Source of the DNA: a virus
Lineage: Duplodnaviria > Heunggongvirae > Uroviricota > Caudoviricetes
Direction: 5' to 3' (one strand)
IMG/VR virus record: IMGVR_UViG_2563366800_000004
DNA length: 3,255 nt
Shown here: one piece after another, positions 1 to 3,255 of the stretch
How positions within the stretch are numbered: the first letter of the stretch is position 1
Layout: each line of letters starts with the position of its first letter
The notes under the pieces: generated by a model
What the model saw: the letters and a program-made list of their open reading frames with translations, nothing else
Databases searched by the model: none
Told to the model about the DNA's origin: nothing
Translations under genes and position numbers: made by a program

Positions 1-216
1 ATGAAATCCATGGATAAGTTAACAACGGGCATTGCCTACGGCACCTCCGCAGGCAGTGCTGGCTACTGGTTTTTACAGCTGCTCGATAAAGTCACGCCCT
101 CACAGTGGGCAGCAATAGGTGTGCTGGGTAGCCTGGTATTTGGCCTGCTGACGTACCTGACAAACCTTTATTTCAAGATTAAAGAAGATAAGCGCAAGGC
201 TGCGAGAGGTGAATAA
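1..216 (+). CDS. S: Class II holin (pinholin) of the phage 21 S type, 71 aa, with dual-start motif
   Basis: ORF 1-216 translates to [71 protein letters not shown]. By recall this closely resembles the phage 21 S holin and the essD-type holins of E. coli cryptic prophages. Two in-frame start codons (ATG 1-3 and ATG 10-12) are separated by a Lys codon, giving the Met-Lys-Ser-Met dual-start arrangement. Two hydrophobic segments are followed by a basic C-terminus ([13 protein letters not shown]). The stop TAA (214-216) overlaps the next ATG (216-218). The gene begins at base 1, so its upstream promoter and RBS are not visible. Confidence 0.9.
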
Positions 217-713
217 TGCCTCCATCATTACGAAAAGCCGTTGCTGCTGCTATTGGTGGCGGAGCAATTGCTATAGCATCAGTGTTAATCACTGGCCCAA
301 GTGGTAACGATGGTCTGGAAGGTGTCAGCTACATACCATACAAAGATATCGTTGGCGTATGGACTGTATGTCACGGGCATACAGGAAAAGACATCATTCC
401 CGGTAAAACGTATACCGAAGCAGAATGCAAAGCCCTCCTGAATAAAGACCTTGCCACGGTAGCCAGACAAATTAACCCGTACATCAAAGTCGATATACCG
501 GAAACAACGCGCGGCGCTCTTTACTCGTTCGTCTATAACGTGGGCGCAGGCAATTTCAGAACATCTACTCTTCTTCGCAAAATAAACCAGGGCGATATCA
601 AGGGCGCATGTGACCAGCTACGTCGCTGGGCATACGCTGGCGGTAAGCAATGGAAAGGCCTGATGACTCGTCGTGAGATTGAGCGTGAGGTCTGTTTGTG
701 GGGGCAACAATGA
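216..713 (+). CDS. R: SAR (signal-anchor-release) endolysin, T4-lysozyme-like muramidase, 165 aa
   Basis: ORF 216-713. The N-terminus [27 protein letters not shown] is a Gly/Ala-rich, weakly hydrophobic segment after a short basic stretch, typical of a SAR domain. Counting residues gives Glu35, Asp44 and Thr50 ([18 protein letters not shown]), the spacing of the T4-lysozyme/R21 catalytic triad. A purine-rich RBS GAGAGGTG (203-210) sits 5 nt upstream of the ATG. The start overlaps the holin stop (TAATG). Confidence 0.9.
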
Positions 714-751
714 GCAGGGTACCGGCGATCCGGCGCGTGAGTTCACCATGA
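710..751 (+). pseudogene. Rz (i-spanin) start stump: 13 codons then stop
   Basis: ATG at 710-712 overlaps the endolysin stop TGA (711-713) as ATGA, the usual R/Rz arrangement. The first codons (ATGAGCAGGG, Met-Ser-Arg) resemble the lambda Rz start as I recall it, but the frame stops at 749-751 and the downstream sequence is capsid-gene 3' end. No Rz1 lipoprotein ORF is present. Confidence 0.45.
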
Positions 752-816
752 TTCAGTCAGCACCGCTGATGCTGCTGGCTGATCCTGATGAGTTCGTGTC
801 CGTTCAACTGGCGTAA
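721..816 (+). pseudogene. 3' terminal fragment (about 31 codons) of a lambda-E-like major capsid protein gene
   Basis: In the frame with codons at 724, 727 and onward, the sequence reads GDPAREFTMIQSAPLMLLADPDEFVSVQLA and then TAA (814-816). This matches my recollection of the C-terminus of the lambda major capsid protein gpE. There is no start codon and no upstream capsid sequence; homology appears to begin near 719-724. Confidence 0.6.
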
Positions 817-818
817 TC

Positions 819-836
819 ATGGCCCTTCGGGGCCAT
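819..836. other. Intergenic stem-loop: 7-bp perfect stem ATGGCCC/GGGCCAT closing a TTCG tetraloop
   Basis: Read directly: ATGGCCC (819-825), TTCG (826-829), GGGCCAT (830-836), which are exact reverse complements with a C-G closing pair on a UUCG loop. It lies between the capsid-gene stop (816) and the FI RBS (848-854) and is followed by a moderately T-rich stretch TGTTTCTCTGTGG. Confidence 0.5.
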
Positions 837-857
837 TGTTTCTCTGTGGAGGAGTCC

Positions 858-1256
858 ATGACGAAAGATGAACTGATTGCCCGTCTCCGCTCGCTGGGTG
901 AACAACTGAACCGTGATGTCAGCCTGACGGGGACGAAAGAAGAACTGGCGCTCCGTGTGGCAGAGCTGAAAGAGGAGCTTGATGACACGGATGAAACTGC
1001 CGGTCAGGACACCCCTCTCAGCCGGGAAAATGTGCTGACCGGACATGAAAATGAGGTGGGATCAGCGCAGCCGGATACCGTGATTCTGGATACGTCTGAA
1101 CTGGTCACGGTCGTGGCACTGGTGAAGCTGCATACTGATGCACTTCACGCCACGCGGGATGAACCTGTGGCATTTGTGCTGCCGGGAACGGCGTTTCGTG
1201 TCTCTGCCGGTGTGGCAGCCGAAATGACAGAGCGCGGCCTGGCCAGAATGCAATAA
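858..1256 (+). CDS. FI: Lambda FI-like DNA-packaging / head assembly accessory protein, 132 aa
   Basis: From ATG 858-860 the protein begins MTKDELIARLRSLGEQLNRDVSLTGTKEELALRVAELKEELDD, which matches my recollection of lambda gpFI; stop TAA at 1254-1256. RBS GGAGGAG (848-854) lies 3-5 nt upstream. The ORF track's longer form from 819 starts inside the hairpin and lacks an RBS, so 858 is preferred. Confidence 0.85.
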   Translation: MTKDELIARLRSLGEQLNRDVSLTGTKEELALRVAELKEELDDTDETAGQDTPLSRENVLTGHENEVGSAQPDTVILDTSELVTVVALVKLHTDALHATRDEPVAFVLPGTAFRVSAGVAAEMTERGLARMQ

Positions 1257-1267
1257 CGGGAGGCGCT

Positions 1268-1621
1268 GTGGCTGATTTCGATAACCTGTTCGATGCTGCC
1301 ATTGCCCGCGCCGATGAAACGATACGCGGGTACATGGGAACGTCAGCCACCATTACATCCGGTGAGCAGTCAGGTGCGGTGATACGTGGTGTTTTTGATG
1401 ACCCTGAAAATATCAGCTATGCCGGACAGGGCGTGCGCGTTGAAGGCTCCAGCCCGTCCCTGTTTGTCCGGACTGATGAGGTGCGGCAGCTGCGGCGTGG
1501 AGACACGCTGACCATCGGTGAGGAAAATTTCTGGGTAGATCGGGTTTCGCCGGATGATGGCGGAAGCTGTCATCTCTGGCTTGGACGGGGCGTACCGCCT
1601 GCCGTTAACCGTCGCCGCTGA
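1268..1621 (+). CDS. FII: Lambda FII-like head-tail joining (head completion) protein, 117 aa, GTG start
   Basis: From GTG 1268-1270 the protein reads MADFDNLFDAAIARADETIRGYMGTSATITSGEQSGAVIRGVFDDPENISYAGQG..., matching my recollection of lambda gpFII (117 aa). RBS GGGAGG (1258-1263) lies 4 nt upstream. Stop TGA at 1619-1621. Confidence 0.85.
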   Translation: MADFDNLFDAAIARADETIRGYMGTSATITSGEQSGAVIRGVFDDPENISYAGQGVRVEGSSPSLFVRTDEVRQLRRGDTLTIGEENFWVDRVSPDDGGSCHLWLGRGVPPAVNRRR

Positions 1622-1632
1622 AAGGGGGATGT

Positions 1633-1761
1633 ATGGCCATAAAAGGTCTTGAGCAGGCCGTTGAAAACCTCAGCCGTATCAGCAGAACGGCGGTGCCCGG
1701 TGCCGCCGCAATGGCCATTAACCGCGCTGACAGACAATACGCAGGGGGCAACAGGTCTTGA
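1633..1761 (+). pseudogene. Truncated lambda Z-like tail-completion gene: about 31 authentic N-terminal codons, then out-of-frame junction sequence and stop
   Basis: ATG 1633-1635 is preceded by AGGGGG (1623-1628). The translation [31 protein letters not shown] matches the lambda gpZ N-terminus as I recall it, then continues as [11 protein letters not shown] and stops at TGA 1759-1761. Intact Z is about 192 aa. Confidence 0.6.
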
Positions 1762-2671
1762 GTTATACGAGGTGTATAACAACGGATATCCAACAGCGTA
1801 TGGAAATATCATTCACCTGAAAGGGATGACAGCCGTTGGCGAAGGTGAGTTACTCATCGGCTGGAGTGGTACAAGCGGTGCTCATGCTCCGGCATTTATT
1901 CGTTCACGACGGGATACGACCGACGCAAACTGGTCGCCGCGGGCGCAGCTTTACACCTCGGCTCATCCTCCTGCAGAGTTTTATCCAGTCGGCGCACCAA
2001 TCCCGTGGCCATCAGATACCGTTCCGTCTGGTTATGCCCTGATGCAGGGGCAGACTTTTGACAAATCTGCCTACCCGAAACTTGCAGCCGCTTATCCGTC
2101 AGGCGTGATCCCTGATATGCGTGGCTGGACGATTAAGGGCAAGCCCGCCAGTGGTCGTGCCGTATTGTCTCAGGAACAGGACGGCATAAAATCGCATACC
2201 CACAGCGCCAGCGCATCCAGTACTGATTTGGGGACGAAAACCACATCGTCGTTTGATTACGGCACTAAATCCACGAATAACACTGGTGCGCATACCCATA
2301 GTTTAAGTGGCAGCACGAATGCAGCTGGTAATCACAGCCATAGAGATGGCCGTCGATTTAACCCCAGTGTTTTTAAAGATACTTATCAATATGGTTATAC
2401 AAGCTCAGGTCAAAATACCTGGGGTGTACAAGGCTCAGTAGGTATGTCTACGGGGGCGTTAGCTAATACCAGTACAGATGGTAATCATAGCCACTCACTG
2501 TCCGGCACCGCAGCATCTGCAGGTGCACACGCACATACTGTCGGTATTGGTGCTCATACGCACTCCGTTGCGATTGGTTCACATGGACACACCATCACCG
2601 TTAACGCTGCTGGTAACGCGGAAAACACCGTCAAAAACATCGCATTTAACTATATTGTGAGGCTTGCATAA
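1727..2671 (+). pseudogene. stf: C-terminal ~314 codons of a side tail fibre (Stf) gene, including the receptor-binding tip with HxH motifs; no start codon of its own
   Basis: The frame with codons at 1730, 1733 and onward reads ...[23 protein letters not shown]...[56 protein letters not shown]...[31 protein letters not shown] and stops at TAA 2669-2671. The PIPWP block and the [11 protein letters not shown] terminus are as I recall for lambda/Rac-type Stf C-termini. The frame stays open upstream only as far as a TTG at 1649 inside the Z stump, with no convincing RBS. The first in-frame ATG (1826-1828) has GGG immediately adjacent, which is poor spacing. Confidence 0.8.
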
Positions 2672-3255
2672 TGGCATTCAGAATGAGTGAACAACCACGG
2701 ACCATAACAATTTATAATCTGCTGGCCGGAACTAATGAATTTATTGGTGAAGGTGATGCATATATTCCGCCTCATACAGGTCTGCCAGCAAACAGTACCG
2801 ATATTGCACCGCCAGATATTCCGGCTGGCTTTGTGGCTGTTTTCAACAGTGATGAGGCATCGTGGCATCTCGTTGAAGATCATCGGGGAAAAACCGTCTA
2901 TGACGTGGCTTCCGGCGACGCGTTATTTATTTCTGAACTTGGCTCGTTACCGGAAAATGTCACCTGGTTATCGCCGGAAGGGGAATATCAGAAGTGGAAC
3001 GGCACAGCCTGGGTGAAGGATACGGAAGCAGAAAAACTGTTCCGGATCCGGGAGGCGGAAGAAACAAAAAACAGCCTGATGCAGGTAGCCAGTGAGCATA
3101 TAGCGCCACTTCAGGATGCTATAGATCTGGAGATCGCAACGGAGGAAGAAACCTCATTGCTGGAAGCCTGGAAAAAATATCGGGTGTTGCTGAACCGTGT
3201 TAATACAACAACTGCACCGGATATTGAATGGCCAACAGTACCCATTATCGAATAG
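2671..3255 (+). CDS. tfa: Tail fibre assembly protein (Tfa), 194 aa
   Basis: ATG 2671-2673 overlaps the stf stop (TAATG). The protein [54 protein letters not shown]...[30 protein letters not shown] matches my recollection of lambda Tfa (orf-194) with scattered substitutions. RBS-like GAGG (2659-2662) lies about 8 nt upstream. Stop TAG at 3253-3255 is the last codon of the window. Confidence 0.9.

Follow-up and report, generated by a model that had tools for sequence, protein, structure and literature searches.

The DNA analysed here is a stretch of 3,255 nucleotides from the IMG/VR virus record IMGVR_UViG_2563366800_000004 (the window, below), and it carries part of a decaying lambdoid prophage, a kind of locus that is already known and of which it is one further example. 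With a probability of roughly 80%, we read it as the remainder of the late operon of a lambda-family prophage that sits at attB-lambda (ybhC|ybhB) and was dismantled stepwise, and not as a working or selected module. The gene map is based on a six-frame listing of open reading frames (ORFs) and on Pfam scans of the window. An earlier note on this DNA had described five intact genes, encoding a holin, an endolysin, FI, FII and Tfa, together with stumps of Rz, E, Z and stf, and each of these features was indeed found where it had been placed. The five genes are full length and free of frameshifts, the four stumps are seen between them, all genes are on the + strand, and the stop/start overlaps at S/R (TAATG at 214-218) and stf/tfa (TAATG at 2669-2673) are real, each being 1 nt. 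Pfam coverage, comparison with the lambda proteins and alignments to PDB entries also bore out that the survivors are without inactivating changes. The gene order is kept as in lambda (int-xis ... S-R-Rz ... E-FI-FII-Z ... stf-tfa), and the genes needed for growth have been lost: nu1-D, U-J, the early region and Q are absent or truncated.

The first gene of the lysis cassette (1-216) encodes an intact class II holin of the phage 21 type (EssD/S21 family) with 71 amino acids, which covers positions 1-63 of the 64 positions of PF04971 (Phage_holin_2_1; E = 2e-35) and is named EssD in RefSeq (WP_000839582.1). The protein begins with MKSMDK and thus has methionines at residues 1 and 4, that is, two early start codons, which we take, by analogy to phage 21, to function as a dual start. 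It is followed at 216-713 by an intact signal-anchor-release (SAR) endolysin of the RrrD/R21 type (165 amino acids), which covers positions 3-125 of the 125 positions of PF00959 (Phage_lysozyme) and aligned over its full length to PDB 4ZPU (RrrD) and 3HDE (phage 21 lysozyme) with E values of about 1e-108. Its translation contains the E-D-T catalytic triad (E35, D44, T50) and, at the N terminus, a Gly/Ala-rich SAR segment (residues 8-27). When window positions 1-720 were compared with the sibling prophage of E. coli 2020CK-00188 (L004), not a single nucleotide difference was found in the holin and endolysin genes. The Rz gene is cut to four codons, ATG AGC AGG GT(A), at 710-721, as seen by comparison with the full Rz gene of L004, which reads on as ...GAGCAGGG TA ACCGCGATTATC...; in the window, the stump continues out of frame as a 13-codon ORF. 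Since the embedded Rz1 lipoprotein gene is deleted and four codons of Rz are left, there is no spanin, and the Rz/Rz1 pair of a phage 21-type cassette is therefore missing.

The next segment, 721-1729, is 99.4% identical to lambda (J02459), with differences at 6 of 1009 bases, and some of the six are common to Qin-type Z stubs. It starts with the 3' stump of the major capsid gene E (721-816; lambda 7065-7160), which comprises the last 32 codons including the stop codon and matches positions 302-328 of the 329 positions of Phage_cap_E. A terminator scan of the E-FI intergenic region gave a hairpin, ATGGCCCTTCGGGGCCAT, at 819-836 that is followed by a T-rich run and is terminator-like; its sequence is that of native lambda. 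FI, the DNA-packaging accessory protein, is intact (858-1256; 132 amino acids; positions 1-131 of 131 in PF14000, Packaging_FI), and so is FII, the head-tail joining protein, with a GTG start (1268-1621; 117 amino acids; positions 4-96 of 99 in PF05354, Phage_attach). Both proteins are 100% identical to those of lambda, and the FII gene has one synonymous difference. In established lambda biology, FI and FII have no known role without terminase, capsid/proheads and tails. FI and FII are also intact in two Qin remnants that have four or five deletions in the head region, L115 (S1-CAM-01-C, 557-2969) and L003 (3707-9000); this retention may reflect ascertainment, since these loci were found with the window as the query. 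The segment ends with the 5' stump of the tail gene Z, the first 29-31 codons (1633 to 1718/1726), which matches positions 1-30 of the 190 positions of Minor_tail_Z. Homology to lambda stops at 1726-1729, and the ORF extends out of frame to 1761.

The remainder of the window is occupied by tail fibre genes. The C-terminal 317 codons of the side tail fibre gene stf (1719-2671; Pfam Collar and Phage_fiber) encode a collar domain and His-rich fibre repeats. They lie in a frame different from that of Z and have no start codon or ribosome-binding site of their own; gene callers start the fragment at GTG 1700, and RefSeq labels it a pseudogene. It is the equivalent of StfQ of K-12, with 84% identity and an alignment that begins at the same first residues. 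The tail fibre assembly chaperone Tfa (2671-3255; 194 amino acids) is intact, covers positions 1-130 of the 131 positions of PF02413 (Caudo_TAP) and shares 183 of 194 residues with Tfa of lambda. The exact protein occurs in 45 blocks of the public collection, across several stf contexts, and relatives with the same Tfa keep other genes: an intact stf in L442, U-V|stf in L445 and J|stf in L004. Within tfa, at window positions 3014-3212 (+), there is a full-length match (222 bits) to the candidate small-RNA family RF02111 ("IS009") of Rfam, which probably reflects the conservation of tfa and not a separate RNA gene.

The whole window was found in 1 of 5426 complete E. coli genomes, that of strain PCP06171 (seawater, Galapagos), with one mismatch; this sole difference between the two is at position 1918 in the stf fragment, which is G in the window and A in PCP06171. 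A search of phage records gave no record with this arrangement. An exact-protein look-up with Tfa retrieved the window at 100% in four further NCBI assemblies, among them GCA_000408625.1, and the Rz|E junction was likewise seen in 1 of the 5426 complete genomes and in the assemblies retrieved with Tfa. All 3255 bases recur without a mismatch in four NCBI assemblies that are independent of one another, which excludes an artefact of assembly; taken with PCP06171, these carriers demonstrate that the arrangement is real and fixed in a small clade. The identity of 99.4% between 721-1729 and laboratory lambda, a common contaminant and standard, as well as the label "whole genome shotgun" on PCP06171, could point to a mis-assembly or a laboratory construct in which lambda DNA was joined to prophage DNA. 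We consider this close to inconceivable, given that the sequence is present in at least five independent assemblies from 2013 onwards, that the Z|stf junction recurs in a metagenome contig, that the six differences from lambda include sites common to Qin-type Z stubs, and that the junctions carry microhomology and not cloning sites. A seemingly extra junction in GCA_027673655.1 turned out to be a scaffold gap, a run of N.

In PCP06171 (L001), the window is part of an 8.5-kb element between two lambda att cores at ybhC|ybhB. The core, GCTTTTTTATACTAA, is present at L001 16820 and 25301 (chance expectation, 0), and these direct copies between ybhC and ybhB are what is expected of a cryptic prophage at attB-lambda. 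The order within the element is attL, int, xis, two small ORFs, IS3, the window, a minus-strand GGDEF/MASE4 gene and attR; the flanking host genes are gal, mod, bio and uvrB, with ybhC on the gal side and ybhB on the bio side. The missing head and tail genes were not found in the flanks, so that the locus is a true remnant, as the earlier note had claimed, and the refuting condition set by that note did not hold. Just past the end of the window, between tfa and attR, lies the AT-rich GGDEF/MASE4 gene for a diguanylate cyclase (L001 23329-24660, minus strand). It is also present in L004, L445 and a further sibling, the metagenome contig L140, and is cargo of the att-lambda phage lineage. The ydfJ gene of PCP06171 is intact, and there is no Qin prophage in it. 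Elsewhere in this chromosome, near ydeP (2297609-2302324; L434 14609-19324), an island encodes an Avs4 anti-phage nuclease and a DEAD/DEAH helicase; it has IS3-family fragments on both flanks and is unrelated to the prophage finding.

The window contains two internal deletion junctions. Junction 1 (Rz|E, 717-729) was located by a three-way comparison of the window, Rz of L004 and lambda 7034-7104, which placed the crossover at or beside the TA at 720-721. The Rz parent reads ...GAGCAGGG TA ACCGCGATT and includes the 11-mer GGGTAACCGCG, identical to that of the stf hot spot described below; the E parent, at lambda 7065, reads ...GACCA CCGGCGAT. The microhomology is imperfect, with 7 of 10 positions matching (TAACCGCGAT versus CACCGGCGAT). 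Junction 2 (Z|stf, 1719-1726), hot spot HS1, has a perfect microhomology of 8 bp, TAACCGCG, which is embedded as CCAT TAACCGCG TT in lambda Z and as CGGG TAACCGCG CT in intact stf (in longer form, ...GCAATGGCCAT|TAACCGCG TT and ...AAAAGGTCGGG|TAACCGCG CTGACAG). With 8 bp and 7 of 10 matches, respectively, the junctions have the features of microhomology-mediated (illegitimate) deletions and, taken alone, both are ordinary representatives of that class. Gene conversion from a resident Qin remnant was rejected as the origin of Z'|'stf, ydfJ being intact in PCP06171.

The stf breakpoint is not peculiar to the window. IMG/VR and the JGI metagenomes were scanned with three kinds of query: the 24-mer that adjoins the site on its right (TAACCGCGCTGACAGACAATACGC for HS1), the native left flank, and a downstream anchor chosen without reference to the site. 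At least 22 different deletions, each with a left partner of its own, end to the nucleotide at the breakpoint ...|TAACCGCGCTGACAG: 22 distinct foreign left contexts, in 43 loci, are joined at |TA(A/G)CCGCGCTGACAG, and the native context is present in 139 loci. One additional junction sits 2 nt from HS1, and there are none in the 20 nt upstream. HS1 corresponds to window positions 1719-1726, to position 4001 of L010 (Qin of ATCC 8739) and to position 5841 of L448 (MG1655). Indeed, the nohA|stfQ boundary of Qin in MG1655 is at HS1 (...GAGTGAATA|TAACCGCGCTGACAG), and in the Qin remnants of other strains the stf fragment is fused to portal, terminase, J, ynfO, tape-measure or Z genes, always at the same base. 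With the downstream anchor, 29 of 31 junction types within 72 nt fell on three TA dinucleotides, HS1 (CGGG TA ACCG), HS2 (GAGT TA TACG) and HS3 (CGGA TA TCCA). HS2 and HS3 are weaker than HS1: HS2 (L010 4046, window 1764; GAGT|TATACGAGG) has three partners, and HS3 (L010 4069, window 1787; ACGGA|TATCCAAC), which is the centre of the perfect palindrome GGATATCC, has five.

The left ends follow the same rule. The Z site of the window (1711-1726; lambda 8055-8070), ATGGCCAT|TAACCGCG, serves as the left end for at least five other right partners (TATACGAGG, TATGCGTGG, TACCCGATC, TTCCGTCGG and a TAACCGCG|TGGCC variant), most of which begin with TA, and in one IMG/VR locus the Rz site is the right end. 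In 18 of the 20 junctions whose undeleted left parent was known, TA followed the breakpoint in that parent, so that TA is present in both parents; TA makes up 3.1% of the dinucleotides in the left arm of lambda, and by our own arithmetic the binomial probability of 18 in 20 is about 1e-25. The rule also holds at nu1|J and at a deletion internal to A, and in part at D|E. From 24 parental sites a dyad-symmetric consensus, C(-4) G(-3) G(-2) N TA N C C G, was obtained. In the hybrids, the left parent contributes the base that precedes TA and the right parent the base that follows it, and therefore the exchange took place within TA. All mappable left partners (21/21) are co-directional, and no inversion was seen among them. 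On these data, we read both internal deletions of the window as having used TA inside the quasi-palindrome CGGN-TA-NCCG, an endpoint reused in many lambdoid remnants; the reuse of one site by 22 partners exceeds what the class of microhomology deletions predicts. No description of the HS1 breakpoint was found in the literature searched, which is not proof that it is undescribed.

Such deletions would be made by a break-and-join or template-switch reaction that needs a terminal TA to pair. Two forms of this reaction are favoured jointly: an enzyme may cut or exchange with a 2-nt TA overlap at quasi-palindromic sites, or a nascent 3' end may stall at a small palindrome and switch template by pairing through the terminal TA. 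A third reading, a scar left by an insertion sequence (IS), remains and is ranked below these two. We therefore put forward, as a tentative proposal, that lambdoid prophages in E. coli may be trimmed by an as yet undescribed, site-preferring activity at CGGN-TA-NCCG, with the strongest site, tCGGG TA ACCGcg in stf, as the common stop point, and that the window shows two such events. If so, the common stop point would be the reason why many remnants, Qin of K-12 included, end in an StfQ-type fragment and Tfa.

Several known activities were considered as the source of the breakpoint. Because pinQ adjoins tfaQ in Qin, the Pin invertase was a candidate. A pix-type crossover site is CCTTCTCCCAAACCAA (PMC12529663), and no match to it with up to three mismatches was found in the window or in the stf-pinQ region of Qin in ATCC 8739. 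Furthermore, there is no Qin and therefore no pinQ at that locus in PCP06171, and the events at the breakpoint are deletions only, with no inversions; Pin was thus rejected. The likeness of HS1 to IS911 targets was traced to similar coding sequence (..TAL = ACC GCG CT), and a gyrase-type stagger of 4 bp was discarded because the hybrid bases around TA fit an overlap of 2 nt and not of 4 nt, an argument drawn by inference only.

An IS scar would arise if an IS inserted at TA, gave rise to adjacent deletions and was then lost by transposase-dependent strand switching at microhomologies of 2-4 bp, as in the case of the IS-excision enhancer (IEE) and ISApl1. The loss of IS elements with scars of short microhomology is documented (10.1101/2023.06.07.543989), IS30 favours palindromic hot spots and duplicates 2 bp of its target (PMC9333248), and IS elements are common in the remnants (IS3 in L001, an IS3-family element in L114). 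However, no IS was present at HS1 in the 94 IMG/VR loci with the native left half, and 26 natural IS30 sites from K-12 and IMG/VR were of the ATATTAAAAAAGGCNAC type with duplications of AC, GC, AG, CT, GT or CC, never TA, and none of them was in stf; IS30 itself was therefore dropped. Moreover, IS630 prefers CTAG, which misfits the consensus at positions -1 and +3. We thus doubt that the HS1 junctions are IS scars.

Alternatively, the reuse of HS1 could be a selected stop without any mechanistic hot spot, if selection acted on the C-terminal fragment of stf and on tfa only, that is, on a receptor-binding domain and its chaperone. In support of this, each Qin remnant examined keeps 'stf-tfaQ-pinQ with an upstream part that varies from ynfO to J, the annotation of K-12 calls the fragment protein StfQ, and there is a precedent for a defence role of a tail fibre fragment from a cryptic prophage, the PinQ-inverted StfE2, which blocks adsorption of T2 (PMC12529663). 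Selection cannot, however, explain why 22 independent junctions share a single phosphodiester bond while the 20 nt before it contain none; the TA rule applies elsewhere as well (nu1|J, the A-internal deletion, and the left end in Z with several right ends, three of them in stf); and in the window the fragment lacks both a start codon and a ribosome-binding site of its own. This explanation is therefore unlikely.

The earlier note had proposed two very recent deletions. Their recency is supported by the identity of 99.4% to lambda in 721-1729 and by carriers that are 100% identical; the number has to be revised, as there were at least four events, and they were not simultaneous. The order of two of them can be read from L140, a 2971-bp metagenome contig with the same GGDEF flank, the same Z|stf junction and 99.0% identity: in L140, E continues upstream of the Rz|E point, and therefore the Z|stf deletion preceded the Rz|E deletion. 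Further events are visible upstream of the lysis genes. In GCA_000408625.1 (L446), a full IS3 (5853-7244) has simply inserted 85 bp before the holin gene and is flanked by a target duplication of 3 bp; further upstream there are moron genes, then the 3' part of Q, which abuts a 33-bp IS3 end (2620-2650), and then early-left genes. In PCP06171, IS3 (L001 18660-19913) is located 87 bp upstream of the holin ATG; it is the single copy there and lacks a matching duplication, as would fit a deletion mediated by IS3. Everything from a DUF2513 gene fragment to the IS3 is lost, and no Q is left.

These observations suggest the following course of events. A phage with a phage 21-type lysis cassette, lambda head genes, stf/tfa and the diguanylate cyclase cargo would have entered attB-lambda. 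A deletion would then have fused codon ~29 of Z to codon ~707 of stf at the common octamer TAACCGCG, and a second deletion codon 4 of Rz to the last 32 codons of E. In addition, IS3 would have inserted 85-87 bp upstream of the holin gene, and IS3-linked deletions would have taken the early region and the 5' half of Q, before or after the other deletions. We infer this course as a whole; the part of its order anchored by L140 is that the Z|stf deletion came before the Rz|E deletion. The five genes would be intact because the events are recent and missed them by chance.

The other possibility raised by the earlier note was that the survivors are kept by selection, with one late transcript for both the lysis genes and tfa. 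A Q-dependent late operon needs an intact Q and pR'/qut upstream of the lysis genes, and neither carrier with a readable upstream region has an intact Q (none in PCP06171, the 3' part only in GCA_000408625.1); in the other assemblies, the contig stops just upstream of the holin gene. A consensus scan gave no promoter-like site on the + strand upstream of the holin gene. In lambda, the E-FI hairpin is read through only by Q-modified polymerase. With no intact Q, with IS3 upstream, with no promoter-like site found and with a terminator-like hairpin before FI, it appears unlikely that one late transcript covers the lysis genes and tfa. The lysis pair, without Q-modified transcription and without spanin, is most likely silent. 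Moreover, with terminase, capsid and tail gone, FI, FII and Tfa are without partners to act on.

Substitution counts gave no evidence of selection either. Compared with L140, synonymous and non-synonymous differences numbered 4 and 0 in the E stub, 0 and 1 in FI, 5 and 2 in FII, 9 and 4 in the stf fragment, and 0 and 1 in tfa; compared with L004, they numbered 11 and 4 in the stf fragment and 12 and 8 in tfa. The stumps are thus as biased towards synonymous changes as the intact genes, and therefore the differences represent polymorphism of working phages and not constraint after truncation. Apparently, too little time has passed since truncation for decay to show, and the differences seem to be inherited or imported from functional alleles. 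The comparison of intact genes with stumps that the earlier note had suggested for dating the deletions could thus be made, but it does not date them, because the differences are too few and look imported.

We also weighed whether the survivors are a selected, domesticated module, for lysis-linked release, biofilm formation or phage defence, expressed from one shared transcript. In its favour, none of the five ORFs is shortened or frameshifted, a small clade has the arrangement in fixed form, and StfE2 sets the precedent for defence by tail fibre fragments (PMC12529663). Against this stand the transcriptional context (Q truncated or absent, IS3 upstream, no promoter-like site, the hairpin before FI), the loss of the spanin, the mostly synonymous pattern that the stumps share with the intact genes, the different gene sets retained by near relatives, and the presence of the arrangement in just 1 of 5426 complete genomes; FI and FII, moreover, are established to act only with terminase, prohead and tail. 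The lysis genes of DLP12 were reportedly linked to biofilm formation by Toba and colleagues in 2011, which we counted in favour of such a module. On balance, we regard it as very unlikely and retain the reading of a prophage dismantled stepwise.

Some points weigh against that reading or parts of it. The order of the Z|stf and Rz|E deletions hangs on one metagenome contig of 2971 bp. The TA at junction 1 is present in one parent only, and this junction fits the hot spot more poorly than junction 2 does. At least five assemblies retain the five genes in identical form, and, with so little divergence between them, this may also be a result of selection. With regard to expression, IS3 can reportedly provide outward promoter activity (as Charlier and colleagues are said to have found in 1982), and Q could be supplied by another lambdoid prophage in the same cell, provided that a pR'/qut region survives; L446 still has the stretch directly downstream of its truncated Q.

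The remnant itself is ordinary, a further cryptic prophage at the classic attachment site of lambda. Since intermediates exist in other strains, the locus is a clean worked example of stepwise decay. The pair of junctions deserves attention because both are members of a reused, TA-centred class of deletion endpoints. If prophage decay in E. coli runs largely via a few TA-centred quasi-palindromic sites, the retention of tail fibre fragments and tfa that has been read as selection may in part be mechanistic. The pseudogene boundary nohA/stfQ of the K-12 reference would then have an explanation, and a concrete sequence would be at hand for a genetic assay of the responsible activity.

Among known systems, Qin of K-12 (nohA'-'stfQ-tfaQ-pinQ) has an stf fragment that starts at the same nucleotide as that of the window, followed by an intact tfa with the same 1-nt stop/start overlap, and Qin remnants of other strains keep E-FI-FII-Z'|'stf-tfaQ, like the window. 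In contrast, Qin sits in ydfJ and the element described here at attB-lambda; the left partner of stf is nohA (nu1) in Qin and Z in the window; tfaQ is followed by pinQ, the tfa of the window by the GGDEF gene; and the lysis cassette of Qin, essQ-ydfR-rrrQ-rzpQ, is different. Lambda has the same att core and, with a likeness judged by gene order only, the same int-xis beside attL. However, lambda has its own S/R genes whereas the lysis cassette of the window is of the phage 21 type, the C terminus of stf belongs to another allele, with 87% identity over no more than 279 nt, and compared with lambda the prophage is without some 20 kb of head and tail genes and without the whole early region. The cassette of DLP12 and phage 21 (essD-rrrD-rzpD; S21 pinholin, R21 SAR endolysin) has a holin of the same Pfam family and length and the same kind of overlap between holin and endolysin genes, whereas in the window Rz/Rz1 is cut to four codons and IS3 replaces the upstream late promoter context.

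With regard to the breakpoint, a parallel is provided by deletions promoted by Int and by recombinase pseudo-sites, which have a fixed endpoint and variable partners that resemble it, as at HS1. Parkinson and Davis reportedly described in 1971 Int-promoted deletions of the lambda b region with one fixed end at att. Here, the fixed site is in stf (also in Z and Rz) and not at att, and the shared core is only TA within CGGN-TA-NCCG. The sibling prophage L004 has the same integration site, the same GGDEF cargo and an stf-tfa region 97.7% identical to that of the window. It keeps Q, the nin genes, Rz, exo-bet-gam and a J fragment and is without E'-FI-FII-Z', and it also has a deletion that ends at HS1, with J (lambda 16137) as the partner where the window has Z.

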